A program made the translations under genes and the position numbers. This document shows, in pieces, positions 1-19,738 of a stretch of 24,000 bases of DNA. Position 1 is the stretch's first letter; each line of letters begins with the position of its first letter. The stretch comes from Minisyncoccota bacterium. GTDB lineage: Bacteria > Patescibacteriota > Minisyncoccia > Phycocordibacterales > UBA9973. The stretch covers positions 2,882 to 26,881 of the forward strand of contig JAVHRS010000035.1 in the NCBI GenBank assembly GCA_036171755.1, given 5' to 3'. The notes beneath the pieces are model-generated. The model did not search any database. It was not told where the DNA came from and saw only the letters and a list, made by a program, of their open reading frames with translations.

Positions 1-618
1 AATACCAAAATAAATATCATTTTTGGCGTCCCCATTTTTATACCACCACTTCACATTGTTATTTTTTTCAAGATTATTCTCTATAAACCCAATTTCAGTT
101 TCCCATTTATCTACAACATAGACTGGGTTCATAACACACCTTTTGTACTTCTTTTCTTCTGCATTCTTAGGATAATAATCTTCTTTTGATACATTCCACT
201 TAAGATTTTCCTCATAATCCTTTTCAGTTTTTAATCTGCTCTTAGAATATTTTTCTACAGAGCTTTGTATAACTTTAGCAAAGAATGACTGATTTTCTAG
301 TATTATTTTTTGTATATCAATTTTATCTTTGTCATCTTCTTCAAATCCTAAATACTTATTAAATGTTTGATATATCGCTGTAAGTATTGGGCTTATTGAT
401 CTTGCTCTTTGAAAAGGAGAAGTGTAACTTCCTAAGAAATCTTCCACCTTTGTTTTTATTTCATCTAATTCTTTATATCCAAAAACTGTTGTAAGGAGAT
501 TGTTTATCATTAAACGAGTGGCTGATTCATCTAGTTCGGAATATTGTTTACGTAAATATTGTTTGCCGTATGTTTTTAATTTCTTAGCAAACTCTTTTAT
601 TTGATTTTGTGTAGCCAT
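1..618 (-). CDS. Hypothetical protein, first 206 codons (runs off the window); restriction-endonuclease-like signatures
   Basis: Not in the supplied track because it is truncated. I translated the reverse strand and it is open for all 206 codons from the ATG at 618-616: MATQNQIKEFAKKLKTYGKQYLRKQYSELDESATRLMINNLLTTVFGY...YVVDKWETEIGFIENNLEKNNNVKWWYKNGDAKNDIYFGI. The ELDESATR..L and D-x-E...VKWWxKN stretches recall HsdR-N / Res-type PD-(D/E)XK modules. This is from memory and unverified. Confidence 0.6.
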   Translation of the reverse strand, partial: MATQNQIKEFAKKLKTYGKQYLRKQYSELDESATRLMINNLLTTVFGYKELDEIKTKVEDFLGSYTSPFQRARSISPILTAIYQTFNKYLGFEEDDKDKIDIQKIILENQSFFAKVIQSSVEKYSKSRLKTEKDYEENLKWNVSKEDYYPKNAEEKKYKRCVMNPVYVVDKWETEIGFIENNLEKNNNVKWWYKNGDAKNDIYFGI

Positions 619-827
619 AAAATTTGTTACTTTTGCGTTTTAGTAATAAATCCTAGGGTAAGACGCAAAAAGCCCACCACATAGGTAGTGACCGAAGTCA
701 CTCATATCTGTTTCCAGATACGGCACGTAATGCGACCCCATATGATGGGTTCTTTATGCATTACGTGACTAACTTTCACCATGCCTTTATTTCTAAAGGT
801 TTAGGCTACTTAAACTTATTAGGTTGT
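619..827 (-). ncRNA. Structured ~200-nt 5' leader RNA, copy A (unclassified; candidate riboswitch/cis-regulator or ribozyme)
   Basis: About 195 nt (627-820) recur at 6202-6397. Read on the minus strand, the hairpins carry stable tetraloops: CCUUUA-GAAA-UAAAGG, AUCUG-GAAA-CAGAU and GUGAC-UUCG-GUCAC. A 10-bp helix CACGUAAUGC/GCAUUACGUG (plus 724-733/758-767) encloses CCCAU-CAU-AUGGG. Differences between the copies are compensatory. The element lies between a minus-strand promoter (TTGAAT 861-856, TGn-TATTAT 842-834) and the ATG at 618. Confidence 0.8.
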
Positions 828-947
828 AATTAAATAATAACACTTCGACCTTATTATTCAAAGCCCATTGTATCGCAAACCCTTGAAATCATAGAGGAAG
901 TTACAAACAAGTTGCCAACGATTAGGGTTTAGTAGCGTACGTAGCAG

Positions 948-975: not shown

Positions 976-1062
976 AAGCACTAGTAAACGATACCCGACC
1001 TCTATCTAACACATGGAACTTGGGTGTCGGGACCCAGTTCTTTAAATCTAAAAAATAAGACA

Positions 1063-1980
1063 ATGACAACAGAAAAGTTGATCACGTCTGCTCAAACAGA
1101 CAAAGTCGCAGATCTTGGCAGAGAAGCTGTAAAGACTGCAGTTGGTAAAGTAAATCCAACAAGTACCAATGTTCAAACTGGGATCATCAGCAATGGTCGT
1201 GAGTTCAAAAACAGAGTTGAAGAAGCTGTAAAAGCTATCATTCTGGAAATGATTACACCCAACCAGTACGCCAATGAGGTGGTAAGCTCAAGCTATGCCT
1301 ACCCGAAGGAATACAAGATGAAACCGATCGAAGAACAGGTAAGATTCATTGCCGAAAAGTTCGGACTTGATCCGACACAAGCATTGGAATTTATCAAAAT
1401 GTTACCCGCATTACCTGAAGGTGCCGAAGGATGGTTCGCCATTCCAAAAGTATTATCAGTTGCAAAAAAACATTTTTCTGCGATTACCAATTCTGCCGAA
1501 CAGTATTGTGAAGCCGTGAAATTAGTTCACAGCAAACTTGCTGAAAGCCGTAGCTTCTACAATTACCGTGAAGGTCAGATTACCACCGCACAGATTCGCC
1601 AACATCCCCGTACCATCAGTTTCCTCGAACAATTGGAATCTGAACAACAGGGTGACATTCTGATTCTCGCCGTTCAATACGGAATGAGACATCGTGGCAA
1701 ATCAGTTCGCCGTGCAAGAGAAACGTTCTCAGGTAATGAATTCGGACTTGGAGCATTCGCTCTTGGCTATATGGCATTGGTTCACCCCGATCGTTATGTT
1801 CGTTGGGAAGAACTTGATACCGATTGTGCAGGTGACGAATTTGCTCCTGGTGCTGATGGCGTGTTCTCGAAGGCTCCGATCTTCTACTTCAGCGATGTCG
1901 AGCTTGAGTTCGACACGGTCGATGTGTCCCGTGCCCGCGGTAGCTATGGTTCTGCCTCGGCGTTCGTTCCGCAGAATTGA
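1063..1980 (+). CDS. DGR target (variable) protein, family not recognised
   Basis: Long ORF. The track starts it at GTG 1024; I prefer the first ATG at 1063 (MTTEKL...), though neither start has a clear RBS. The C-terminal ~46 codons are the VR. I see no signal peptide, TM segment or known VR scaffold motif. The gene is visibly more GC-rich than the flanking DNA. Confidence 0.85.
   Translation: MTTEKLITSAQTDKVADLGREAVKTAVGKVNPTSTNVQTGIISNGREFKNRVEEAVKAIILEMITPNQYANEVVSSSYAYPKEYKMKPIEEQVRFIAEKFGLDPTQALEFIKMLPALPEGAEGWFAIPKVLSVAKKHFSAITNSAEQYCEAVKLVHSKLAESRSFYNYREGQITTAQIRQHPRTISFLEQLESEQQGDILILAVQYGMRHRGKSVRRARETFSGNEFGLGAFALGYMALVHPDRYVRWEELDTDCAGDEFAPGADGVFSKAPIFYFSDVELEFDTVDVSRARGSYGSASAFVPQN
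1840..1977 (+). repeat. DGR variable region (VR)
   Basis: VR 1844-1974 aligns base for base with TR 2349-2479 (offset 505). There are 15 mismatches, and every one falls at a TR adenine: TR 2355, 2390, 2397, 2403, 2405, 2411, 2423, 2424, 2435, 2436, 2441, 2442, 2445, 2448 and 2477. TR AAAA at 2345-2348 versus VR TTTG would add four more if the repeat starts there. Confidence 0.95.
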
Positions 1981-2044
1981 TCCTTGTACTTTGAATTCTT
2001 GAATCTTTTGTTTCCTTGATTCTTGATCTCAAAAATTTTTTTGA

Positions 2045-2076
2045 ATAGGGTTATCCACATGGATGACCCTATTTTT
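2045..2076 (+). terminator. Rho-independent terminator after the target gene
   Basis: 12-bp stem AUAGGGUUAUCC / GGAUGACCCUAU (2045-2056 / 2061-2072) with an ACAU loop, followed by UUUU. It lies ~65 nt after the VR stop codon and could also correspond to the hairpin described downstream of VR in some DGRs. Confidence 0.8.
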
Positions 2077-2344
2077 GCGTTTAATTCAAAAACTGATATA
2101 GTAACTATGAGCCTAGGTTAGTGTATAGTCGTTTACGGATGACTATCACCGAACTCTTTCTCTTATGAGAAATCTCCGACCAGAATTATAGTGATTATGG
2201 TTACTATAAGAGCGTCGCTGTGATAAGGGATACTGCTTACTACTTTTTAAGGCAAGCATGTAAATGTGTTGCCAGATAAAATACAGAATTGTGATTCATG
2301 TGCAATATCATGTTTCGTGATTTGTGATTTGGATAGAAAGTAGT

Positions 2345-2482
2345 AAAACTCCTGATGCTGATGGCGTGTTCTCGAAGGCTCCGATCTTCAACTTCAACGA
2401 TGACAAGCTTAAGTTCGACACGAACGATGTGTCCAATGCCAACGATAACTATGGTTCTGCCTCGGCGTTCGTTCCGAAGTAT
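2345..2482 (+). repeat. DGR template repeat (TR)
   Basis: Invariant copy of the VR. It carries in-frame AAC/AAT codons (six Asn codons) at the positions that differ in VR. The first non-adenine mismatch is at 2480 (T versus A), marking the IMH/IMH*-type boundary. The 85-aa track ORF 2324..2581 is this repeat, not a gene. Confidence 0.95.
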
Positions 2483-2493
2483 CCAATATACAC

Positions 2494-2521
2494 AAAAGGT
2501 ATCCTGTTAGGGATACCTTTT
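2494..2521. terminator. Bidirectional terminator hairpin between TR and the avd 3' end
   Basis: AAAAGGUAUCC / GGAUACCUUUU stem (2494-2504 / 2511-2521). The GC core has U-rich tails on both strands: UUUUGCUUUUAU on plus and UUUUGUGUAUAUU on minus. It ends 5 nt before the avd stop codon (2526-2528). Confidence 0.7.
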
Positions 2522-2525
2522 GCTT

Positions 2526-2873
2526 TTATCGTTCAACCGAACGAATCCATCCACCAAGCATTCTACCGATCTCGTCGGTAATATTTTGAAGCAGAGTGTA
2601 CTTCTTTACATCAAGCGTTTTACTTTCTTTCATTAGTCGAACAAAGAAACGAAAAATGTTTAATTTTACACTGGCTTTTTCAAGTAAAAGTAATTTGCGT
2701 TCTTTTGAAGAATAACTTGCTTCTAAGACATATTCGAGAATATCAATCATTACATTTTCAGATCGTTCATAGATTGAAAATCTTTCATGTTTTGGGACTA
2801 ATGTTCTGTATTCATGAAATGTTTTATATAACTCGTGAATTTTTCTTAGAATTGGCACATCATTTTCATTCAT
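2526..2873 (-). CDS. avd: DGR accessory variability determinant (Avd), four-helix-bundle type
   Basis: 115 aa. ...LNIFRFFVRLMKESK...ITDEIGRMLGGWIRSVER closely parallels the Bordetella phage bAvd C-terminus as I recall it (LRFWLRFL...EVGRILGSWIARV). It sits immediately beside a DGR RT but on the opposite strand. Confidence 0.85.
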   Translation of the reverse strand: MNENDVPILRKIHELYKTFHEYRTLVPKHERFSIYERSENVMIDILEYVLEASYSSKERKLLLLEKASVKLNIFRFFVRLMKESKTLDVKKYTLLQNITDEIGRMLGGWIRSVER

Positions 2874-3929
2874 ATGCGTGTATTTATCAATTTATTTAAT
2901 TCATTAATTCAGCCAGAACACCTATTTTATTCATGGGAGGAATTTAAACGTGACAAAGGTTTAAAGGAAGATATTCTCTTATTTGAGAAAAATCTTGAAA
3001 GTGAAATATTTAAGCTTCACCGAGAACTAAAAGGAGAAGTGTATAAACATAGCGGATATGAAAGTTTCTTTATTTCAGATCCGAAACGAAGACATATCCA
3101 TAAAGCAACAGTTAGAGACCGTGTAGTACATCATGCAATTATGCATACATTGTATCCTCTTTACGACAAAACATTTATTGATAATTCATTTTCTTGTCGT
3201 GTTGGTAAAGGGACCCATAAAGGTGTTCTTGCCCTTAGATCTATGATTGCCAAGGCGAGTAAAAATAATACTCAAACTGTTTACATTCTCAAGTGTGATG
3301 TTGAGAAATTTTTTGATTCAGTTCATCATATTATTTTAATTGATATACTTAGAAAAAGAATTAGGGACAAAAAACTCATGGATTTACTGATAGAAGTAAT
3401 TGAGAGTTTTATAAGTGATCGTTCTACTTTATTTGATCGTGTAGGTTTACCAATTGGAAATCTTACATCTCAACTTTTTGCAAACATATACATGGATAAA
3501 TTTGACCAATATATGAAGCATGAATTGAAAGTAAAATACTATGCTCGTTACACAGATGACTTTGTTATTGTGAGTAAAAATAAAGAATACTTGTCTAACC
3601 TTAAATTAGATATTTCTAAATTCCTTAGTGAGTCACTAAGACTTACTATTCACCCAAAGAAAATTACCATTCGTAAGTATACTCATGGTATTGATTTTCT
3701 AGGACATGTTTCTTTTCCACATCATGTATTGATAAGAAAAAGAACCTTAGAAAGAGCTACAAGAAGAATTAATGAGAAGATTGTTTTGTATAAAGCAGGA
3801 TCTCTTGAGAAAGAGAAACTTGAAGCCACTTTATACTCATATCTTGGAGTCCTTTCTCATGCCAATGCTTATAGATTTTCTGAGAAACTGAAGAATGACT
3901 ATTTTCTTTCGGTTAATAATCCTAATTAA
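2874..3929 (+). CDS. DGR-type reverse transcriptase
   Basis: 351 aa. Contains IGNLTSQLFANIYM (the DGR-diagnostic [LIV]GxxxSQ motif), the catalytic box YTDDFVIV, DFLGH, and N-terminal DPKRRHIHKATVRDRVVHHA. Adjacent to a TR/VR pair and avd. Confidence 0.95.
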   Translation: MRVFINLFNSLIQPEHLFYSWEEFKRDKGLKEDILLFEKNLESEIFKLHRELKGEVYKHSGYESFFISDPKRRHIHKATVRDRVVHHAIMHTLYPLYDKTFIDNSFSCRVGKGTHKGVLALRSMIAKASKNNTQTVYILKCDVEKFFDSVHHIILIDILRKRIRDKKLMDLLIEVIESFISDRSTLFDRVGLPIGNLTSQLFANIYMDKFDQYMKHELKVKYYARYTDDFVIVSKNKEYLSNLKLDISKFLSESLRLTIHPKKITIRKYTHGIDFLGHVSFPHHVLIRKRTLERATRRINEKIVLYKAGSLEKEKLEATLYSYLGVLSHANAYRFSEKLKNDYFLSVNNPN

Positions 3930-3981: not shown

Positions 3982-5073
3982 TTACTGGCATTGAGGGCTT
4001 AATGTACGACTAGGAAATGAAGAAAGTAACGACTCTAAAGAAGTAAAGGATTTTATATATTTTTCATTTAATGACTTCCAACCATCACATGTTTCTGGAT
4101 AATAATATTTAGAAGTTGAATATGATGATGTGTAATACTTTCCAGTTGAGTTGGTGGTGTTTGTAGAAGTAGAAGAGGATGTTGAAGTCGCAGTAACAGC
4201 AGAAGTTGTAGTATTACCATTACATGTATTAGTAGACCATAACCCTAAAAGATTTGCTTGAGCATATTTTTGTGCTGTTTTAAATTCAGATTGATATTTA
4301 TATGGCGAGTTATAAGTATACTCATGTGCATATCCCTGTTCAATCATGTATTTATTATAAAATAGACCATCTTCTCTATATACATATGCTAAAGTACGCC
4401 CGTATTTATCGAGAGTGCCTTGAGTTGAATCACTTTCAATTCTAACTTTTTTCCCTGATAATAATTCTTTTGCTTTATTGGATGCCTCTTTACCAAAACA
4501 TTGAACTGGTTTCCTTGGATCAAGTGTTTCTGGGGTGTCTAATCCGATAAGGCGAAGCGTTATTATTGCTCCGTCTTTATTTATTTTAATAGTATCCCCA
4601 TCAACAACGCTTGAAACCGCATAATATTTATATTGAGAATTAGGCGAAGTTGTAGGTGTTTGTGCAGAAGTCACCGATTTAACTTCTTGTGCATTTTTTA
4701 CTTCTTGTTTAGCGGGTATTATTTCATTATTTATCTGTTGAGCTGGATTTTTTGTTTCTACTTGAACATTTGTATTTTCTAAAACATTATTATTTTGTGG
4801 AGCAGGTATTATTTCTGTTTTCTTTGGAAGAAAAATAGAAGAAACAATTAATAAGACAATTACAGCAACAATTTTTATTGTCCTTGAAAAGGAAAAATTA
4901 AATTTCTTTTGAATAAATTTAGAAATGACAGGAATTGTAATTAGTGAAGCAAGAATCATAAATATTCCACCTAGAATACTTTTTTCTAAAGTACTAAGAC
5001 CAGCTATTAACAACAATATACCTATGATCCAAGATAGAATGTTGATTAGATTTAATTTAATATTTTTATTCAT
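3982..5073 (-). CDS. Membrane-anchored thermonuclease (SNase) family nuclease
   Basis: Two N-terminal TM helices and a low-complexity linker precede the SNase core (VVDGDTIKI...RLIGLDTPET...CFGKEAS...DKYGRTLAYVY...GYAHEY). A Ser/Thr-rich tract and a small Cys-containing C-terminal domain (KYYYPETC...SPQC) follow. Confidence 0.85.
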   Translation of the reverse strand: MNKNIKLNLINILSWIIGILLLIAGLSTLEKSILGGIFMILASLITIPVISKFIQKKFNFSFSRTIKIVAVIVLLIVSSIFLPKKTEIIPAPQNNNVLENTNVQVETKNPAQQINNEIIPAKQEVKNAQEVKSVTSAQTPTTSPNSQYKYYAVSSVVDGDTIKINKDGAIITLRLIGLDTPETLDPRKPVQCFGKEASNKAKELLSGKKVRIESDSTQGTLDKYGRTLAYVYREDGLFYNKYMIEQGYAHEYTYNSPYKYQSEFKTAQKYAQANLLGLWSTNTCNGNTTTSAVTATSTSSSTSTNTTNSTGKYYTSSYSTSKYYYPETCDGWKSLNEKYIKSFTSLESLLSSFPSRTLSPQCQ

Positions 5074-5087
5074 AATTTGTAAATTAC

Positions 5088-5456
5088 TTAAGAAATGATA
5101 TTAATTAAAATAATTAGTCCTATAAAAATGGCTATAGCAATAAGAATCATTTTTCTCTGTTTGATATTTTTTACTTCTGCCTTTTTGTCCTCTGAAACAG
5201 CTTTTTCTATTTCTTCTTTAGACATAACCTCGCTTATTATCTTTTGTGCTCTTGGGGAGTCCATAGGTATTAGACTTGGACTTTTGCACTTAGGACATAT
5301 TTTATGTCTTGATGAGGAACGCCAAATTGAATAGATTAGCCCTGGGATAATAAAACAAAGCCAAAGGATTACTTCTATACAACCATTCCCTCCAATCGCA
5401 CCCTTTGGTTCACCGACATAATTACATTGAGTACAAACTAATATTTTTGATGACAT
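5088..5456 (-). CDS. Small membrane zinc-ribbon protein (LITAF-like arrangement)
   Basis: CTQC, then a hydrophobic stretch VILWLCFIIPGLIYSIW, then HKICPKC. This split zinc ribbon around a membrane-inserted segment resembles LITAF/SIMPLE domains. There is a second TM at the C-terminus. Confidence 0.6.
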   Translation of the reverse strand: MSSKILVCTQCNYVGEPKGAIGGNGCIEVILWLCFIIPGLIYSIWRSSSRHKICPKCKSPSLIPMDSPRAQKIISEVMSKEEIEKAVSEDKKAEVKNIKQRKMILIAIAIFIGLIILINIIS

Positions 5457-5480
5457 ATTTAAAAAATTAATTAATAATAT

Positions 5481-6194
5481 TTATTCATATAAAACAGTTA
5501 AAATGCCAGTACCAGAGAAATCACCTTGGTTTGGGGTATGGATTGTTATTACAGATTTTCCATATTTGTAATCTATGTTAGGATTAACATTTATTTTTTC
5601 CTCTGGAATTCGTATCTTTGGATAAATACCGCCAAAAATAATTTGGTCTGAGTTGAAATGCTGAGTGTAAACAAGTTTATCATTCTTTGACATTGAATTA
5701 CTGCCAGCGTATAACTTCACATCAGCTGTAATTAACATTTTTTCTGTTGCGTCACTAGTTATAATATCTCCATTTTTATCTAAATAAACTACTTCAAGAA
5801 CAGGTCCATCATTCTCGACATCAGCATCCCAATTATCTTGTAGTCCTCCACTAACTCGTATGGCAGATAGTCCATCTATCTGTAAAGTTTTATTAGATGA
5901 TATTGGTGTTGTTGGGACAACTTGAGTATTTGCGACCACTGGTACAGTTTTTGGAGTGGTAACTATTTTATTTTGAACCACTGTATCTTTTTGTATTACG
6001 TTAGTTTCTGCTACCGCAACAGGACTACTTACTGTTGATTCGACAATTGGAATCTCATCTTGTATTGGAATTTGAGCAATAGGTTCTTTTTTGTTTGAGA
6101 ATTTAGAACCAACAAATAGACCAATAACAAGTATTGCAACTATAACAACGATCTTACCTGTCATAGTTTCCATAAATTGTTTTACATCTTTCAT
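5481..6194 (-). CDS. Signal-anchored secreted/surface protein, unknown function
   Basis: 237 aa with an N-terminal hydrophobic anchor IVVIVAILVIGLFVG. The rest is not recognised. It is the first gene after leader RNA copy B and is tightly packed with the two downstream genes. Confidence 0.7.
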   Translation of the reverse strand: MKDVKQFMETMTGKIVVIVAILVIGLFVGSKFSNKKEPIAQIPIQDEIPIVESTVSSPVAVAETNVIQKDTVVQNKIVTTPKTVPVVANTQVVPTTPISSNKTLQIDGLSAIRVSGGLQDNWDADVENDGPVLEVVYLDKNGDIITSDATEKMLITADVKLYAGSNSMSKNDKLVYTQHFNSDQIIFGGIYPKIRIPEEKINVNPNIDYKYGKSVITIHTPNQGDFSGTGILTVLYE

Positions 6195-6403
6195 ATTAGA
6201 TTTACTTTTGCGTTTTTAGTGATAAAACCTAGTGATAAGACACAAAAAGCCCACCACATAGGTAGAGACCGAAGTCTCTCATATCAGTTTCCCGATACGG
6301 CATATCACGCGACCCCATATGATGGGTTCTTTATGCGTGATATGACTAACTTTCACCATGCCTTTATTTCTAAAGGTTTAGGCTACTTAAACTATTAACT
6401 TGT
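6195..6403 (-). ncRNA. Structured ~200-nt 5' leader RNA, copy B
   Basis: 6202-6397 is the second copy of 627-820. Helix changes relative to copy A are compensated: CAUAUCACGC/GCGUGAUAUG, GAGAC-UUCG-GUCUC and AUCGG-GAAA-CUGAU. It starts ~7 nt downstream of a perfect minus-strand TATAAT (6415-6410) and ends at the ATG at 6194. Confidence 0.8.
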
Positions 6404-6409
6404 AAAGAA

Positions 6410-6415
6410 ATTATA
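6410..6415 (-). promoter_or_regulatory. -10 box (TATAAT) driving leader copy B and the nuclease operon
   Basis: Perfect TATAAT on the minus strand, placed just before the point where similarity between the two leader copies begins. The -35 is weak or unclear. Confidence 0.45.
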
Positions 6416-6519
6416 CCTTATTTTTTAAGGTTGCACCATATTAGCTCACATTTAAATATTTGTGTAGTCGAGTTATCAACTAGAAGAAATAAGACTATAA
6501 AAATAGTGCAGTATTTACA

Positions 6520-7110
6520 CTATTTATTTTTAATTTTATCCAAAATATCTGCATAAATATTTAATGGATTAGATAATATTTTATCACTTTTTGTTGAAAT
6601 AATTTTATAAAACTTTTCATAAAACCAGAGTTGATCTTCCTTTGAGGAATTAAATTTATCCCAAATTGAATTATTGGTGGCCATCTCATCTAAAATTGTT
6701 TTTAAATTATGTATCTTATCACAAAGAGAAACAGTAGTTGCCTCAAGTGAAGCATTTTCTAGATGCTTTAAATATTTTTCTTTTCTTATTTTCCATGTTT
6801 CTTTATCATTACTTTCCATCTCAGGATCTTTATCTTCTGATACTTCTTTTATTATTTGTAAAACTTTTTCACCAAAAGTATTTTGGATAGAATTCTCCTT
6901 CTCAGACATTAAAACTTTTACATCTTCCAAAACATCATGCAACAAACAGGCAATAAAAATATCTTCATCATCAGTAAATTGACTAGCAATATACATAACC
7001 GAAAAAGGGTGAGAAATATATGGAATCTTTTCCTCACCTTTTCGAAAATAACCATCATGGAATTTTGCAGCAATTTGAATTGCTGTATTCAACCTAGAAC
7101 TAAAATTCAT
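6520..7110 (-). CDS. HD-domain phosphohydrolase, RelA/SpoT-type (p)ppGpp-hydrolase-like (small alarmone hydrolase-like)
   Basis: AIQIAAKFHDGYFRKGEEKIPYISHPFSV...ACLLHDVLEDV matches the SpoT/Mesh1 HD hydrolase pattern (H..Q.RK...PY..HP ... LLHDvvED). The protein is 196 aa and single-domain. Confidence 0.8.
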   Translation of the reverse strand: MNFSSRLNTAIQIAAKFHDGYFRKGEEKIPYISHPFSVMYIASQFTDDEDIFIACLLHDVLEDVKVLMSEKENSIQNTFGEKVLQIIKEVSEDKDPEMESNDKETWKIRKEKYLKHLENASLEATTVSLCDKIHNLKTILDEMATNNSIWDKFNSSKEDQLWFYEKFYKIISTKSDKILSNPLNIYADILDKIKNK

Positions 7111-7434: not shown

Positions 7435-8667
7435 ATGAAAGAGGGTCAAGAAAGTTTTATACATAAAGATAATAAAATTGAACAAAAGAACTTTTTTGAA
7501 AAAGGTCTTAAAATTGTTGTTGGTGGACCGCCACATTCAGGTAAATCTGTATTTCTTGATGGATTATTAAAAAATCTTCCATATAATACTCACTATTTTA
7601 GTGGATGCCCTGATGGCGAAGGCCCATGGCTCCAAAGACACTATACTGAAGATGAGGTAAAAGCATTACGTCGTAAAGGTTCGTTTACGGAAGAGTTTGT
7701 AAATTTTGCACATGATGCAGTCAAAGACTTTGATGGTCAACTTATGCTTATTGATATTGGTGGTCGAATTACTCCAGAAAATATGAAAATTATTTCAGGG
7801 GCGACTCACGCAATTATTCTTTCTGGTGATACTAAAAATTTTGATGAATGGAATGATTTTTTTAAGAAGGAAGGTATAGAAATTATTGCAAAGCTTCATA
7901 GTGATTATGAGGGTAAAGAAGATACAATAACGGAAGATAATGAACAAATACAAGGTAGTGTTCATTATCTTGAAAGAGGACAACATCCAGAAGATAGAGA
8001 GAGTATAAAATTTGTTGCTGAACATATTACCGAACTTGTTAAAAAAAATGAAGAGAAAAAGAATATATCATTAGAGGATAATAATGAGCTTTTGAAAGTG
8101 GACTCATTAGTTTTTGAATATAATCTTAAGGCTAATTATGATAAAGAAACAGTTCCTGAGACATTAACTGGCTTACAAAAATATTTAAAAGATAATTATA
8201 GTGATTCTAAACAAATCAAGATCGATGGGCGTATAAATTCATATCTTGCTGGTTTTTTAGGAACTGAACTTGCAAATGGAGAACGAAAAATATCTTTCAA
8301 TAGTCCAAATGGTTTTGTTGGATTAAAGGAACTCAATCAATCCGAAAATGGAAATGTTATTGATTGGGAACAAAAAGAAAATATTACAAAACATGGAGAT
8401 TCTTTTCTTGAAATTAATTTTAAACTAGACCCATCAAAGCCTTTTAAACCAGAAGATTTAGATGAAATGAATATCCCTAAGATTAGCACGGGTAAAATTG
8501 TATCTATTGGCGGTAAGGGTCCACATTGGCTTAGAACGTCTATTGCAATAGGATATAAAAAGGATGCACAAGTTATTGCTATGTTCATTCCAGGAGAAGG
8601 ATCTATTGTTGTACATTCAAAAGATATAGAAAAATATCCCCTTGGAACATTACTTGAAAATAAATAA
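7435..8667 (+). CDS. P-loop NTPase fused to tandem Csx3-like (Crn3 ring-nuclease-like) domains
   Basis: The N-terminus has a Walker A motif, VVGGPPHSGKS. The C-terminus KIVSIGGKGPHWLRTSIAIGYKKDAQVIAMFIPGEGSIVVHS parallels A. fulgidus Csx3 as I recall it (GVVISGRGPIWLHCFLAHKY...VAVYDPRLGAVVVQS). A degenerate copy lies upstream (IKIDGRINSYLAGFLGTEL...ISFNSPNGFVGL). Not verified by search. Confidence 0.65.
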   Translation: MKEGQESFIHKDNKIEQKNFFEKGLKIVVGGPPHSGKSVFLDGLLKNLPYNTHYFSGCPDGEGPWLQRHYTEDEVKALRRKGSFTEEFVNFAHDAVKDFDGQLMLIDIGGRITPENMKIISGATHAIILSGDTKNFDEWNDFFKKEGIEIIAKLHSDYEGKEDTITEDNEQIQGSVHYLERGQHPEDRESIKFVAEHITELVKKNEEKKNISLEDNNELLKVDSLVFEYNLKANYDKETVPETLTGLQKYLKDNYSDSKQIKIDGRINSYLAGFLGTELANGERKISFNSPNGFVGLKELNQSENGNVIDWEQKENITKHGDSFLEINFKLDPSKPFKPEDLDEMNIPKISTGKIVSIGGKGPHWLRTSIAIGYKKDAQVIAMFIPGEGSIVVHSKDIEKYPLGTLLENK

Positions 8668-8713: not shown

Positions 8714-9616
8714 CTAATTTAGCTTTTCCTCAATCATCTTGAACTCTGGAGTATTACCAAATTCAGATCGTATTTTTTCTAAAAGATTTTTGATCATCTC
8801 TTTATCCATTTTAATCATTCCAGATTCTTCAAGATTCTTACCTTCCTGTCGAAGTGATTGAAGCCCAATTACTTCAGCTAATTCGAATTGTCTTGTTTCT
8901 GGATTAGAAGCTAAACGAATCATATTAGGCCATTGTCCACTAATACCATAGATTGCTGTTGTTTGAAGTGTTCCTAATGCCCCCAAACCAGCAGGAGCGT
9001 AAGCAACCTTACCTGATTCCCAGTCACCAACAGTCATACCGGCTTTTTGAGACGCTTCAACAAGAGCGGAAATAATTTTATTTTTCCCATCACCAGAAAT
9101 TTCTTCCGTAGTAATTTTATTGTCCCCAAAAGGTACAAATACAAGATTTTCTACTGTTGTCCCCATTTCTTCAGCAAGTGCTAAATGTTGATCAGCTGAT
9201 ATAGGGTGTCCACCTTGTAAAACAAATGTTTTACCCGATGCACTTCCTTCAATTCTCTGTCCACGAGCATCACGAGAAGCTTCATGTCGCCATTCAGACA
9301 AATTGATTTCAACGGGTTCTGATCCTGGTACAACAAGAAGAGCTTTTTTAGGTAATCCTGCTATCATTTCAGTGAGAGCAAGAAATATTCCAGATGCATG
9401 AGCCTGCCCAGGCAAAGCTATCTTGTCTGCATTTTTAATCTTACTAAGATTTGCAGAAACATATTCTTTTACTTGATCAATTAGATGCTTATCTTTTTCA
9501 AGATTAAGATTCAATACTTCTGTCTTTATATTTTCTCCAGTAATTGTAGGTACTGTTGAAAATGTGGATTCTGGTTGCTTTTCAGCAGAATTTACACGTT
9601 CAAATTTTGGTTCCAT
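8714..9616 (-). CDS. Unknown two-domain protein, paralog of 9718..10548
   Basis: 300 aa. It is collinear with the upstream gene product: EINLSEWRHEASRDAR versus ELNLHDFRHNQARPKR; TTVENLVFVPF versus GTETLVFANL; YAPAGLGALGTLQTTAIYGISGQWP versus MITAGLSPVNAILVTALHALCESWC; FELAEVIGL versus FHFTDLIQL. It has its own TGn-TATAAT -10 box on the minus strand (9653-9648). Confidence 0.75.
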   Translation of the reverse strand: MEPKFERVNSAEKQPESTFSTVPTITGENIKTEVLNLNLEKDKHLIDQVKEYVSANLSKIKNADKIALPGQAHASGIFLALTEMIAGLPKKALLVVPGSEPVEINLSEWRHEASRDARGQRIEGSASGKTFVLQGGHPISADQHLALAEEMGTTVENLVFVPFGDNKITTEEISGDGKNKIISALVEASQKAGMTVGDWESGKVAYAPAGLGALGTLQTTAIYGISGQWPNMIRLASNPETRQFELAEVIGLQSLRQEGKNLEESGMIKMDKEMIKNLLEKIRSEFGNTPEFKMIEEKLN

Positions 9617-9717: not shown

Positions 9718-10548
9718 TTACCGGTTAATTTTTCTCAATTCATCCCCGAGTAACGTTCCTTCGGGATGTTCATTGAGCAATTGCTCAAAAACATCTTTAG
9801 GAACAAGAACGGGAGCACTCCCAGCGTTTGCAGTTCTGCCAAGGGCTTCCATTTTTCCCAACTGTATTAAGTCAGTGAAATGGAAAGTTCCTTCTTTGTT
9901 TTCTGCAACTGGCTGAGAACACCAGCTTTCACAAAGAGCATGTAGAGCAGTTACCAAAATTGCATTTACTGGGGAAAGTCCCGCAGTAATCATGATAACT
10001 CTGCGACTGGCAATTGAGTTACTAACTCCAGCACTTGAAAGTGCATTTGTTAACTCTTCAAGAAGCCATTCCGCTAAACCATTTTGACCTAAGTCAATCT
10101 GGCCAAGCTGAAGGTTAGCAAATACCAGTGTTTCAGTCCCAGCCAACTCAGAGAGCTCGGCTTTTTGGTGTTCAGGTACTTCACGTCCTGAAGCATTCAC
10201 AATAATCACTGCATCCTGGGACAAATTGTCCTCAGTTGCAAGGAATGTTGCACGCTTCGGCCTTGCTTGATTGTGACGGAAATCATGGAGATTTAACTCT
10301 CCCTTATTAATTCCATCAGGTCCAATCAAAGCAATCGTGGGAAATGTATTATTCTTTCCACGCAAGAATGCGCAGATTGAACTTCCAACTCCTGGTATCG
10401 GATGAAGCACTACTACCTCTTCTGTAGAGGCATTGACTCCAGAAATTTGAGCTTTAATCTGCTCTGCAATTGGAGTTCCGGGAACAATACTGAATGCGTA
10501 ATTCTTTTCACCTTGTACGCGAGGGTTTGTTGAAAATAAAGTTTTCAT
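9718..10548 (-). CDS. Unknown two-domain (Rossmann-like?) protein, paralog of 8714..9616
   Basis: 276 aa and relatively GC-rich. Strand-loop-helix elements VVVLHPIPGVGSSICAFL and RVIMITAGLSPVNAILVTALHAL suggest nucleotide- or ligand-binding folds. No family recognised with confidence. Confidence 0.75.
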   Translation of the reverse strand: MKTLFSTNPRVQGEKNYAFSIVPGTPIAEQIKAQISGVNASTEEVVVLHPIPGVGSSICAFLRGKNNTFPTIALIGPDGINKGELNLHDFRHNQARPKRATFLATEDNLSQDAVIIVNASGREVPEHQKAELSELAGTETLVFANLQLGQIDLGQNGLAEWLLEELTNALSSAGVSNSIASRRVIMITAGLSPVNAILVTALHALCESWCSQPVAENKEGTFHFTDLIQLGKMEALGRTANAGSAPVLVPKDVFEQLLNEHPEGTLLGDELRKINR

Positions 10549-10584
10549 TTTTTTATTTTTTAAATTAAAATTATTTATTATTCA

Positions 10585-10642
10585 CTCTTGAAATGAATAT
10601 TATAAGTACTTATTTAAATACCCATAATACTCATTTCAAGAG
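10585..10642 (-). promoter_or_regulatory. 19-bp hairpin in the 5' UTR of 9718..10548
   Basis: Arm 10585-10603 (ctcttgaaatgaatattat) pairs with 10624-10642 (ataatactcatttcaagag). The single imperfect position (10597/10630) is A.C on the plus strand but a G.U wobble on the minus strand. The loop is 20 nt. Confidence 0.6.
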
Positions 10643-10730
10643 AATTGAATAAAATTTCAACAAACCTAATTGAGATATTTATTAAAGAACAATTTTATAA
10701 GGCTGAATTTTCTCCTAACCCTACTTGCCT

Positions 10731-15020: not shown

Positions 15021-15159
15021 AAATATTTTTTTGTATTATGTAACCATTTTTTATTTAGTTTTCAATGAACGATGAACCATTCTAATAATATCTTTTACTA
15101 GAATGAATTAATTAAAAATTGGTTTTTAACTAATTTATTCTAACAAAAAAATAAAAAAA

Positions 15160-15228
15160 GTGGTCGGGAAGTCTCTTCTATAAGTATAACGCATAAAACA
15201 ATACTTAATAAAGAGATCTCCCAACCAC
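15160..15228. other. Long imperfect hairpin in a 500-nt non-coding gap
   Basis: GUGGUCGGGAAGUCUCU (15160-15176) pairs with AGAGAUCUCCCAACCAC (15212-15228) to give 17 bp, of which 3 are non-canonical on the plus strand (C.A at 15165/15223, A.C at 15170/15218, G.U at 15171/15217). On the minus strand two of the three become G.U wobbles and the third C.A. The loop is ~35 nt, with an A-run before and a T-run after. Function unknown. Confidence 0.4.
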
Positions 15229-15527
15229 TTTTATGTGATCAGTATCAACATATCTTGCGAAACAATAGCAGACCTCAGCTATGTTTCTTATCTATTTTAC
15301 TAGATAGAATCTGTTGGACCAATTCTTGGTCAAAGTTTTACATTTCAATTAGCTAGGTATAGTATAAATAAATAAAAATATTTGTCAAGGGGTGTGGGTA
15401 ATGTCTAAACACATTTGGCACTTTTTACTAAACTTAATAAATGAGTATTTTAATCAGTTAGTTACCAACAGTATGGACATGGGACGCTCTGGACTCCCAT
15501 GGAGGGTTGCGTCATTAATGTAGATAT

Positions 15528-16856
15528 ATGAAAATAGATAACCCAAATCAAGAGAAAGGTGTCGAGAAAATTAAGGTCGAACCAAAGAAGATTAGATACT
15601 GCCTTTATGCAAGAAAATCAACAGAATCAGAGGAAAGACAAGTCCTTTCCATAGACAGTCAAATCAGCGAGATGCTCCAATTAGCCGATCGTGAGGGGCT
15701 TGAGGTGGTCACCATGAAGCGTGAAAGCCATAGTGCTAAAGAGACTGGACAAAGACCTGTTTTTAACGAAATAATCGAAGAACTCAAACAAGAGAAGTTT
15801 AATGCCATACTCACATGGGCACCTGACCGTATTTCAAGAAATGCGGGAGATTTAGGAAAGATTGTAGATTTAATGGATGCAGGAAAATTGCATATGATAC
15901 GAACCTTCGGACAAACGTTTGGGAATAATCCAAATGAGAAATTTCTTCTAATGATTCTTGGCTCGCAAGCAAAACTAGAAAATGATAACCGAGGTATCAA
16001 CGTTAAGCGTGGATTGCGAACGAGAGTAGAGATGGGATTATGGCCTGGGATGGCACCATTGGGATATTTAAATCAAAAATTAATGGATAGGAAGTGTCAG
16101 ATAGTAATTGATCCAGATAGAGCACCGATCATAAAGAAAATGTTTGAGAAAGTAGTATATGAACATTGGAGTGGCAGAAAAGTATACAACTGGTTACGAT
16201 TTGATTTAAATTTCTATACTCGAGGAAACAAACCCCTGACACTCTCAGGGGTTTATCGTATCTTTAATATGCCAATCTATTATGGACCATTTGAATACCC
16301 TAGAAATTCTGATAACTGGTATCAAGGAAGTCATACACCAATAATTACTCAGGAATTATTTGAAAAAGCTCAAGCACAATTAAAAAGAGATAGAATTGTG
16401 AGAGAAAATAGAGAGTTCGCATTCACTAAATTATTTACATGTGGAATGTGTAGTTCAGGGATATCTGCTCAAGAGAAGTATAAAGAGCTTAAAGATGGAA
16501 CTACTGCTAAATATGTCTACTACTCCTGTTCAAAAGCAAGAGATAGAAATTGTAAAAATAAATATATCAGAGAAGAAGAATTGATAGATGAATTATTTAA
16601 AGTGATTGATAAGGTAAGTATTAATGAACTAGGAATGCGAATTAAACTTGAAGAAGAGATAAAGCGATTTAATCGACTTCAAAGATTAGCAACAAAAGGT
16701 ACACCGAAATACTCAACCAATGAGGATGATGTAAACACAAGAGAGTATGCTAAGTATGTACTTAGAGAAGGCACACCGCTCGAAAAAAGAGAATTGCTTG
16801 GACATTTAAGGAGTAGATTGGTGCTGAATGATAAGAAAATTACACTCGTAGAATAA
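15528..16856 (+). CDS. Large serine recombinase (phage-integrase/transposon type)
   Basis: The N-terminal resolvase catalytic region is RYCLYARKSTESEERQVLSIDSQ (Ser nucleophile context). A recombinase domain follows, then a Cys cluster CGMC...YYSC and a coiled-coil tail. 442 aa. Confidence 0.9.
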   Translation: MKIDNPNQEKGVEKIKVEPKKIRYCLYARKSTESEERQVLSIDSQISEMLQLADREGLEVVTMKRESHSAKETGQRPVFNEIIEELKQEKFNAILTWAPDRISRNAGDLGKIVDLMDAGKLHMIRTFGQTFGNNPNEKFLLMILGSQAKLENDNRGINVKRGLRTRVEMGLWPGMAPLGYLNQKLMDRKCQIVIDPDRAPIIKKMFEKVVYEHWSGRKVYNWLRFDLNFYTRGNKPLTLSGVYRIFNMPIYYGPFEYPRNSDNWYQGSHTPIITQELFEKAQAQLKRDRIVRENREFAFTKLFTCGMCSSGISAQEKYKELKDGTTAKYVYYSCSKARDRNCKNKYIREEELIDELFKVIDKVSINELGMRIKLEEEIKRFNRLQRLATKGTPKYSTNEDDVNTREYAKYVLREGTPLEKRELLGHLRSRLVLNDKKITLVE

Positions 16857-19573: not shown

Positions 19574-19651
19574 TTTTTTGTAACTTGTAGCTTTGTGGGT
19601 CACAGCTCAACGTCGAGCATGTAGGTCCTCAAAACTAACAGGTTGTCCCTG

Positions 19652-19738
19652 CGGAAGGGGGGAGATTCGAACTCCCGAGGAGCTTTCACCCCTGACAGTT
19701 TTCAAGACTGTTCCATTAGACCACTCTGGCACCCTTCC
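19652..19738 (-). tRNA. tRNA-Ser (anticodon UGA), type II with long variable arm
   Basis: Minus-strand cloverleaf: acceptor GGAAGGG/CCCUUCC plus discriminator G; anticodon arm ACAGU-CUUGAAA-ACUGU; variable stem GGGG/CUCC; T arm GGGAG-UUCGAAU-CUCCC. No CCA is encoded. Confidence 0.9.

Follow-up and report, generated by a model that had tools for sequence, protein, structure and literature searches.

LOOT is a catalogued structured RNA without an assigned function, and two copies of it, A and B, lie on the minus strand of a 24,000-nt stretch of DNA from a Minisyncoccota bacterium (GCA_036171755.1, contig JAVHRS010000035.1). This stretch is called the window below, and positions are counted in it: copy A is at about 619-827 and copy B at 6195-6403. 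The comparison of these copies with their relatives indicates that LOOT is the promoter-proximal 5' leader of a co-oriented gene, that it extends into a covarying antisense tail which is outside the catalogued motif, and that such leaders head cargo operons of recombinase-bearing mobile elements. It seems on balance probable, if not strongly so, that the leader would act in cis as an expression switch for the cargo gene, by means of a terminator-like helix and of the masking of the ribosome-binding site (RBS).

A repeat search of the window gives the two copies as a 158-nt direct repeat (659-816 and 6236-6393, 92% identity). The alignment of both regions with MAFFT shows that the similarity runs, on the minus strand, from about 6403 and 827 to about 6205 and 630, and stops 8-11 nt short of the ATG codons at 6194 and 618. 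In both copies, the conserved block begins exactly 7 nt past the hexamer of a -10 box, at A6403 and A827. The preliminary description of this DNA, made from its letters, had placed the block between a -10 box and a start codon in each copy, and both boxes are confirmed (Table 1).

The element is the LOOT RNA (Rfam RF03000). Both copies match the whole 121-nt model (1-121), with its helices P1-P4, and score 74.9 bits (copy A) and 73.6 bits (copy B) for a gathering score of 46.4; the E-values of the two matches are 1e-12 and 2e-12. Apart from noise, the leader has no match to another Rfam family at E <= 5. The copies differ at 13 positions over the 149 nt of core and tail, and 12 of these form six compensatory double changes, four in basal P2, one in P3 and one in P4. 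Since the differences are compensatory and fall in helices, both copies are under selection for RNA structure. The possibility of a DNA-level repeat or a miniature inverted-repeat transposable element was rejected, on the basis of this compensation, of strand-specific G-U pairs, and of the ends of the block, which are at the -10 box and near the start codon.

Rfam classifies LOOT as 'Gene; sRNA', of unknown function. Only two papers were found to mention it. The discovery paper (Weinberg et al. 2017, PMC5737381), in its accessible part, names LOOT in the supplement only. The other, on structure prediction, counts six helices with about 43 base pairs (PMC7657543), and no functional study of LOOT was found in the literature. 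The window copies have P1-P4, the CCUAAAC/GCAUGG loop, and the GAAA and GNRA loops of the Rfam motif. However, the Rfam model stops at P4 and carries a small RNA (sRNA) type, whereas the unit found in the window adds to it a promoter, the 5' motif ACAAYUNAAU, the covarying antisense tail with its U-tract, and a spacer that leads to the start codon.

Relatives were fetched by degenerate-pattern scans of genome, metagenome and IMG/VR contigs, which gave 360 loci (designated by L and a number, e.g., L362). The first pattern, CCTAAACN{8,24}GCATGGN{1,4}AAA, was too loose, with about 17 true LOOT among 120 matches. A covariance model built from the core and tail of the window copies and swept over all 360 loci identified 91 distinct LOOT copies in 89 loci. 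The 17 copies that were checked against the Rfam gathering score all pass it (68.9-100 bits). The named genome records with LOOT are metagenome-assembled genomes (MAGs) of Patescibacteria: Gottesman-, Levy-, Uhr- and Saccharibacteria, and 'Patescibacteria group'. A few LOOT-bearing MAGs are unclassified or probably mis-binned. The window leaders are most closely related to L362, L140, L148 and L222, which come from metagenomes, and to L111, from a Saccharibacteria MAG. Covariation was examined in an alignment of 46 sequences made by structure-blind MAFFT (A6), and the folding energies given below are nearest-neighbour predictions.

The position of LOOT relative to genes is very regular. A co-oriented open reading frame (ORF) starts within 300 nt after the element in 84 of the 85 copies that have enough downstream sequence, and the distance between the end of the LOOT model and the start of this ORF has a median of 29 nt (interquartile range 20-38.5). 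Of the nearest upstream ORFs, 24 have the orientation of LOOT and 19 are divergent. At this background rate, the binomial chance of 84 co-oriented ORFs out of 85 is about 2e-20. Because the downstream ORF is co-oriented while the upstream neighbours point either way, LOOT is best read as the 5' leader of the gene that follows. This location in the 5' untranslated region (UTR) is the one expected of a riboswitch, and it is not that of the independent unit expected of a trans-acting sRNA. The idea that the block is a 5' UTR rather than a free-standing sRNA or a mobile repeat, which was put forward in the preliminary description, is thus borne out by the neighbourhood survey, in which homologs have a consistent position and are not scattered with respect to genes. 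The sole clear orphan copy (L002:3618-3768) lacks an ORF on its downstream side, where there is a strong hairpin terminator instead.

Upstream of most LOOT copies is an extended -10 box, and about 6-9 nt beyond it comes the conserved sequence ACAAYTNAAT. The fixed place of this motif after the -10 box suggests that transcription starts there; the predicted start in the window is likely A6403 for copy B and A827 for copy A.

The tail which follows P4, called Y (ACCUAUGUGGUGGGCUUUUUGY in the window), is outside the Rfam model and is antisense to a segment X (AUAAAGAACCCAUCAUAUGGGGU), which comprises the 5' strand of the P2 internal loop and the apical hairpin of P2. In alignment A6, the helix formed by the 5' part of X and the 3' part of Y (X5':Y3') has 93% of its cells paired and double changes in 10 of its 13 pairs. 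For comparison, slid controls are 39-54% paired, and the accepted helix P3 has 96.7% of its cells paired, with double changes in 8 of 8 pairs. The same conclusion is reached without an alignment: the X:Y duplex has a mean energy of -26.3 kcal/mol with its own partner, compared to -15.6 +/- 4.9 with the Y of other members, and the own Y ranks in the best tenth for 89% of the X segments. X5':Y3' and X3':Y5' are each specific, and the cross controls are null. The T-run of Y pairs with the A-rich strand of the X:Y helix, and its variants covary (ACUG/CAGU in L128, UACUGAA/UUUAGUG in L139). The Us of the U-tract are also kept where they are left unpaired (20 of the 46 sequences do not form pair 18-116); such conservation beyond pairing is what the U-tract of a terminator would require.

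In the MAFFT alignment, the apical hairpin of P2 in the Rfam consensus is 58% and 51% paired in two registers, neither above shuffles; the alignment-free specificity of X5':X3' is weak yet above the null, and close relatives covary. In L361 and L111, the covariation is three-way between X5', X3' and Y, from CCC/GGG/GGG to CCU/AGG/AGG. X5':X3' and X:Y thus appear to be mutually exclusive and both kept by covariation. The X:Y duplex, of about 20 bp, would also cross basal P2 with only 0-2 nt of linker, and the coexistence of the two seems unrealistic. Between the two window copies, none of the 20 X:Y pairs is changed, compared to 6 of the 24 pairs of P2, P3 and P4 (Fisher p = 0.02), which fits a segment under several simultaneous pairing constraints.

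The segment Z, downstream of Y in the window copies, is X-like, and Y:Z has an energy of -13.6 kcal/mol with the own partner and -10.3 with the others. Y:Z was rejected as a classical terminator, the U-rich sequence after Z being found only in the subfamily of the window. A local terminator hairpin made of the 3' strand of P4 and the tail (691-674 and 6266-6250) was also dropped; it is not conserved in other members.

In part of the family, the spacer before the start codon is itself related to P2. For 11 of 42 leaders, the P2 3' arm that best complements the spacer, among all arms, is the leader's own; over 2000 permutation trials, the number of such leaders averages 1.1 and never exceeds 6. 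At the strongest sites, a copy of the 5' arm of P2 ends 0-6 nt before an ATG; in three Saccharibacteria leaders, this ATG opens a short ORF. A similar first ORF of 24-31 codons (M-K-(K)-R-x-H-x-A-V-x-A-V-F-I-L...) is seen in L074 (1374-1466), L094 (1601-1690) and L195 (338-409), which are two Saccharibacteria MAGs and one unclassified metagenome contig, with the mimic of the P2 5' arm directly before the ATG. This ORF may encode a leader peptide or a small membrane protein. In the subfamily of the window, the sequence ACGCAAAAG before the ATG is complementary instead to the CUUUUUGYGU of the U-tract segment, and L111 has a compensating C-G to A-U change in this pairing.

The sequence of the core hints at a tertiary contact. 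In alignment A6, the GAAA loop of P3, which is outside the search pattern, has three invariant positions out of four and a fourth that is nearly so, and the P1 loop CCUAAAC/GCAUGG is upper-case in the Rfam consensus. The 11-nt GAAA-tetraloop receptor has the signature CCUAAG/UAUGG (PMC2615604), from which the P1 loop of LOOT differs mainly by A-C for G-U; the likeness is one of sequence only.

Riboswitch-type leaders, such as that of the pbuE adenine ON-switch, have mutually exclusive aptamer and terminator or RBS-sequestering helices. Each block in the window is a complete module, from promoter to start codon, built around the LOOT RNA, which could adopt two folds. In fold A, the structure described by Rfam would form, and the P3 GAAA loop would probably dock into the receptor-like loop of P1 and lock it; Y would pair with the X-mimic Z, leaving the start region free, and read-through would turn the gene on. 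In fold B, Y would invade X and form the helix of about 20 bp, whose GC-rich end would abut the U-tract in a terminator-like manner. Fold B would exclude basal P2 and release its 3' arm. In about a quarter of the family, the released arm could pair with the copy of the P2 5' arm located 0-6 nt before the ATG, which would mask the RBS and turn the gene off; in the subfamily of the window, the U-tract segment would instead mask the start region via ACGCAAAAG. Candidate triggers for the choice between the folds are a small ligand, a protein, Mg2+, temperature, or the LOOT RNA of another copy. Constrained folding of the 46 full leaders predicts energies that are similar for the two folds, with a difference of -4 +/- 7.8 kcal/mol (fold A minus fold B), and fold B is favoured by about 4 kcal/mol in the window copies. 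The features involved are collected in Table 1.

Table 1. Positions of the LOOT leaders and associated genes in the window.
Feature	Position	Strand	Basis
Copy B, -10 box TATAAT	6410..6415	-	sequence
Copy B, conserved 5' motif ACAAGTTAAT	6394..6403	-	inference; predicted transcription start A6403
Copy B, LOOT core P1-P4	6264..6384	-	Rfam RF03000, 73.6 bits
Copy B, P1 with internal loop CCUAAAC/GCAUGG	6356..6382	-	Rfam consensus, upper-case; receptor resemblance inferred
Copy B, segment X AUAAAGAACCCAUCAUAUGGGGU, P2 internal-loop 5' strand and apical hairpin	6312..6334	-	20 pairs with tail Y
Copy B, P3 GAAA loop	6288..6291	-	conservation in alignment A6
Copy B, tail Y, antisense to X; U-tract 6244-6248	6242..6263	-	covariation, duplex energies
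Copy B, segment Z CUUAUCACUAGG, X-like, can form a hairpin with Y	6228..6239	-	Y:Z energies
Copy B, ACGCAAAAG, 10 nt before ATG, complementary to CUUUUUGUGU of the tail	6205..6213	-	sequence
Copy B, operon of three genes	3982..6194	-	ORF calls and Pfam
Copy A, extended -10 box TGnTATTAT	834..842	-	sequence
Copy A, conserved 5' motif ACAACCTAAT	818..827	-	predicted transcription start A827
Copy A, LOOT core	687..807	-	Rfam, 74.9 bits
Copy A, segment X, identical to that of copy B	735..757	-	sequence comparison
Copy A, tail Y; U-tract 667-671	665..686	-	covariation, duplex energies
Copy A, segment Z CUUACCCUAGG	652..662	-	Y:Z energies, fold A
Copy A, ACGCAAAAG, 11 nt before ATG	630..638	-	sequence
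Copy A, downstream ORF, runs off the window; codons 1-56 HSDR_N_2-like	1..618	-	homology search

LOOT resembles riboswitch-type leaders in that a structured 5' domain comes right after the promoter and one of its parts doubles as a terminator-like strand, and in that alternative RBS-masking pairings exist, with a platform that varies between subfamilies. Like the expression platform of a riboswitch, the leader has structures that exclude each other, and these would presumably function as one. On the other hand, LOOT has no coherent regulated pathway or known ligand, and its competing helix, within which P3 and P4 would lie, uses the apex of P2 and not the 3' strand of the closing helix.

Several observations weigh against the switch. 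The GC-rich end of X5':Y3' abuts CUUUUUG, but the stem is long-range: the terminator-like helix would enclose about 55-75 nt (the 3' arm of P2, P3 and P4), which is atypical for intrinsic terminators, and a few LOOT members, such as L128, have no U-tract. In the window, the RBS mimic amounts to a weak match of 6 nt in copy B, and copy A has none. There are few conserved unpaired nucleotides that could form a ligand pocket, and the downstream genes share no pathway, unlike those of classical metabolite riboswitches. The strong conservation of both basal P2 and X5':Y3' would also suit a static structure, which is considered below. As for the data, the fetch pattern demands CCTAAAC...GCATGG, the P1 loop, so that divergent LOOTs are under-sampled; the ORFs come from simple scans of our own; and the evidence on the leaders is comparative throughout.

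The genes behind the leaders are diverse. In the window, the tightly packed operon of copy B encodes a membrane-anchored protein of 237 aa (5481-6194), a Pmp3-like protein of 122 aa (5088-5456) and, as the third gene of three, a membrane-anchored SNase of 363 aa (3982-5073); the SNase, already recognized in the preliminary description as the end of this operon, is confirmed by PF00565 (E = 6e-25). The restriction-endonuclease-like character ascribed to the copy A gene holds for its beginning only. Residues 1-56 are 82-93% identical to proteins of 230-260 aa of the HSDR_N_2 family (PF13588), but the sequence beyond codon 56 is unrelated to these relatives, whose PD-(D/E)xK nuclease core lies in that part and is absent here. 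The ORF at 1-618 matches no Pfam or NCBIfam family, the homology search matched its first 27% only, and the 150 stop-free codons after codon 56 have no match among 5.8 billion proteins. At the DNA level, the homology of this gene to L362 and L361 ends at about position 450, which is codon 56, ahead of the nuclease core. L362 has a nearly identical LOOT (189 bits), and the HSDR_N_2 gene behind it is intact. The copy A gene is thus a chimera, which may be the product of a recombination at the boundary of a cargo cassette.

This picture is extended by Pfam scans of about 98 proteins, which come from 40 first and 58 later genes of the operons. The families of the first genes are three trypsin-like peptidases, C5 and N6/N4 DNA methylases, DUF4177, DUF4352, tRNA_anti-like, CHAP and G5; those of the later genes are ResIII (twice), NERD, RadC, peptidases, and one SNase, which is that of the window. 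The majority of these proteins match no Pfam family and are mostly small membrane or secreted proteins. A hydrophobic N-terminal segment is present in 26 of the 40 first genes, 24 of the 58 later genes and 6 of 43 upstream neighbours, which is an enrichment in first genes over the rest (Fisher p = 2e-4). In the full set, 55 of 80 first genes (69%) encode N-terminally membrane-anchored or secreted proteins. No enrichment of nucleases was found downstream of LOOT in these 40 operons, and the heterogeneous Pfam content does not point to one metabolite, as that of a riboswitch regulon would. This heterogeneity argues against a metabolite and for a control by a global signal, a protein or RNA-RNA pairing.

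In Patescibacteria, LOOT loci show a strong association with large serine recombinases, as well as with genes of accessory or defence type. A tblastn search with three of them as queries, including that of the window (15528-16856), detected a homolog in 33 of the 89 LOOT loci (37%), compared to 6 of the 274 LOOT-negative loci (2%) from the same scans (odds ratio 26, p = 4e-17). Among the six recombinase-positive controls, one has a divergent LOOT and one a LOOT cut by the end of the contig. The recombinase is upstream of LOOT and divergent from it in 27 of 34 cases, and 135-225 nt away in 12. Other upstream neighbours include XRE-type helix-turn-helix proteins (five), OLD-like, AbiEii-like and ParE proteins. 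Five loci, the window among them, have the reverse transcriptase of a diversity-generating retroelement (DGR) and its Avd accessory gene in the vicinity of LOOT. The DGR block of the window is 96.9% identical to that of L362 and the leader about 91%, and the cargo behind the leader is different. The association with recombinases and the varied cargo behind a conserved leader thus indicate that LOOT leaders head cargo operons of recombinase-bearing elements or islands.

The window recombinase (+) has Resolvase, Recombinase and Zn_ribbon_recom domains, and is preceded by an inverted repeat at 15156-15232 (32-nt arms, 81% complementary). A recombinase homolog adjoins LOOT in the relatives; in the window it is 9 kb away. 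In several loci, tRNA genes are found a few hundred to a few thousand nt from LOOT (e.g., L172 1-320, L108 1341-1510, L042 7330-7863), which would fit islands integrated next to tRNA genes.

These data bear on what kind of RNA LOOT may be. A link with mobile elements is central to the alternative that it is an antisense control RNA encoded in the leader of serine-recombinase integrative elements, similar to the CI RNA of P4, in which X would pair with Y in cis and on the transcripts of other copies or of incoming elements, causing premature termination and defining 'immunity types'. P4 CI RNA pairs with seqA and seqC of its own transcript, which leads to transcription termination, and IsrK of Gifsy-1 is a dual sRNA/mRNA (PMC4825925). 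LOOT would share with these precedents a leader RNA of a mobile element which pairs with complementary sites in its own transcript and, possibly, a dual sRNA/mRNA life; it is unrelated to them by sequence or in Rfam, and is found in Patescibacteria, with large serine recombinases. The frequency of recombinases, mostly upstream and divergent, is in favour of this idea, as are the X:Y pairs, which are element-specific and covarying: they are identical in the window copies and L362 while other helices drift, and differ between the two copies of L002. However, the cargo consists of membrane or defence genes and not of replication or antirepressor genes, no C4-type Rfam match is seen at E <= 5 in 6150-6450, and about 60% of the LOOT loci show no recombinase, although many contigs are short. 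This alternative is unlikely, if worth keeping in mind. The same doubtful standing is given to the broader proposal that LOOT is the control RNA of a widespread, undescribed family of integrative elements with large serine recombinases in Patescibacteria, with an element-specific X/Y lock that would terminate or release the transcription of the cargo operon in cis, immunity types in trans, and a leader that serves as homology for cassette exchange. The Rfam type would rather suggest a free-standing trans-acting sRNA with its own promoter and a terminator made of X5':Y3' and the U-tract, the gene behind being a neighbour or reached by read-through. The GC-rich helix followed by a conserved U-tract and the orphan copy of L002 with its hairpin terminator are consistent with this, but co-oriented ORFs about 29 nt away in 84 of 85 copies, with random orientation upstream, the shortness of the spacer, which leaves no room for a separate promoter, the RBS-adjacent copies of the P2 5' arm, and conservation that reaches up to the ATG in the window copies make it quite improbable.

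LOOT could also be a constitutive structured leader, in which basal P2 and X5':Y3' would form a static pseudoknot acting, with no switching, on mRNA stability or ribosome loading for genes acquired by horizontal transfer. The tetraloop-receptor-like pair suggests a compact fold, and the diverse cargo has no common signal. Yet X3':Y5' is also specific, which gives a duplex of about 20 bp that is hard to reconcile with a closed P2; the three-way covariation of X5' with X3' and Y, and the RBS mimics of the P2 5' arm, are not expected of a static leader either, and the 15-25 nt of unstructured 5' end before P1 would be poor for 5'-end protection. This reading therefore has a small chance of being correct. 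Still less can be said for a nuclease regulon, serving nucleotide scavenging or defence and defined by a leader that responds to a ligand, as proposed in the preliminary description. It was suggested by the SNase operon and the HSDR_N_2-like gene start of the window, and relatives do have LOOT before an intact HSDR_N_2 gene (L362) and restriction-modification genes. But nucleases are a small minority of the proteins scanned (one SNase, one NERD), among which membrane or secreted proteins prevail, and LOOT has a stronger tie to the large serine recombinases. Because the downstream genes are diverse and the copy A gene has no nuclease core, the nuclease regulon is unsupported and very unlikely. 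The least probable alternative, hardly to be expected at all, is that the block acts as DNA, as a cassette boundary or recombination site of the serine recombinase, in the manner of integrons. The recombinases that adjoin LOOT, the different cargo of the window and L362 behind a conserved leader and DGR block, and the two leaders per locus in the window and L002 could be explained in this way. Nevertheless, 5 of the 20 X:Y pairs are strand-specific G-U pairs, the GNRA loops and the receptor-like motif are features of RNA, the promoter is at a fixed distance upstream, and serine recombinases use short double-stranded sites.

The gene regulation of the ultra-small bacteria of the candidate phyla radiation (CPR, Patescibacteria) is almost uncharacterised, and LOOT is among the many orphans in the catalogue of structured RNAs. 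The present analysis suggests that it should be re-read as a cis-acting leader with a covarying tail, located near recombinases and before membrane, secreted or defence cargo. Neither the reading of LOOT as a cis-leader nor its antisense tail, its RBS mimics or its association with recombinases was found in the accessible literature, which did not cover the supplement of the discovery paper, where they may be noted. The model of the switch is concrete and testable. Should the switch turn out to have a ligand, or to act in trans, it would represent a new regulatory class specific to the mobile elements of CPR bacteria. LOOT may also serve as a sequence marker for the cargo operons of mobile elements in poorly annotated genomes, and it corrects their annotation, in which gene callers put spurious ORFs antisense to LOOT. 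Short antisense ORFs of this kind, which are almost certainly artefacts of the structured RNA, are seen in the window (6177-6398, +), L362 (1775-1972, -) and L361 (6773-6928, -); the last two are annotated as genes in public assemblies.

The window has other features of interest. A complete DGR is located at 1024-3929, with a target gene (1024-1980), a variable repeat (VR, 1844-1977), a template repeat (TR, 2349-2482), bAvd (2526-2873, -) and the reverse transcriptase (2874-3929, +); 15 of the 16 differences between TR and VR fall on adenines of TR. An HD_4-domain protein, of a type found in small alarmone hydrolases, is encoded at 6520-7110 (-), upstream of the copy B promoter, with 105 nt between its end and this promoter. 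A Csx3/Crn3-domain protein (7435-8667) is followed by two Csx15-like proteins (8714-9616 and 9718-10548), and no CRISPR array or cas core genes were seen in the window. An intergenic inverted repeat at 10574-10653 has arms of 39 nt which are 77% complementary and 2 nt apart. The sequence 19651-19738 (-) matches the Rfam tRNA-Sec at 48.6 bits, just above the cut-off of 47, and is called tRNA-Ser with the anticodon UGA by ARAGORN; it is most likely a long-arm tRNA-Ser and does not count as evidence for the use of selenocysteine.

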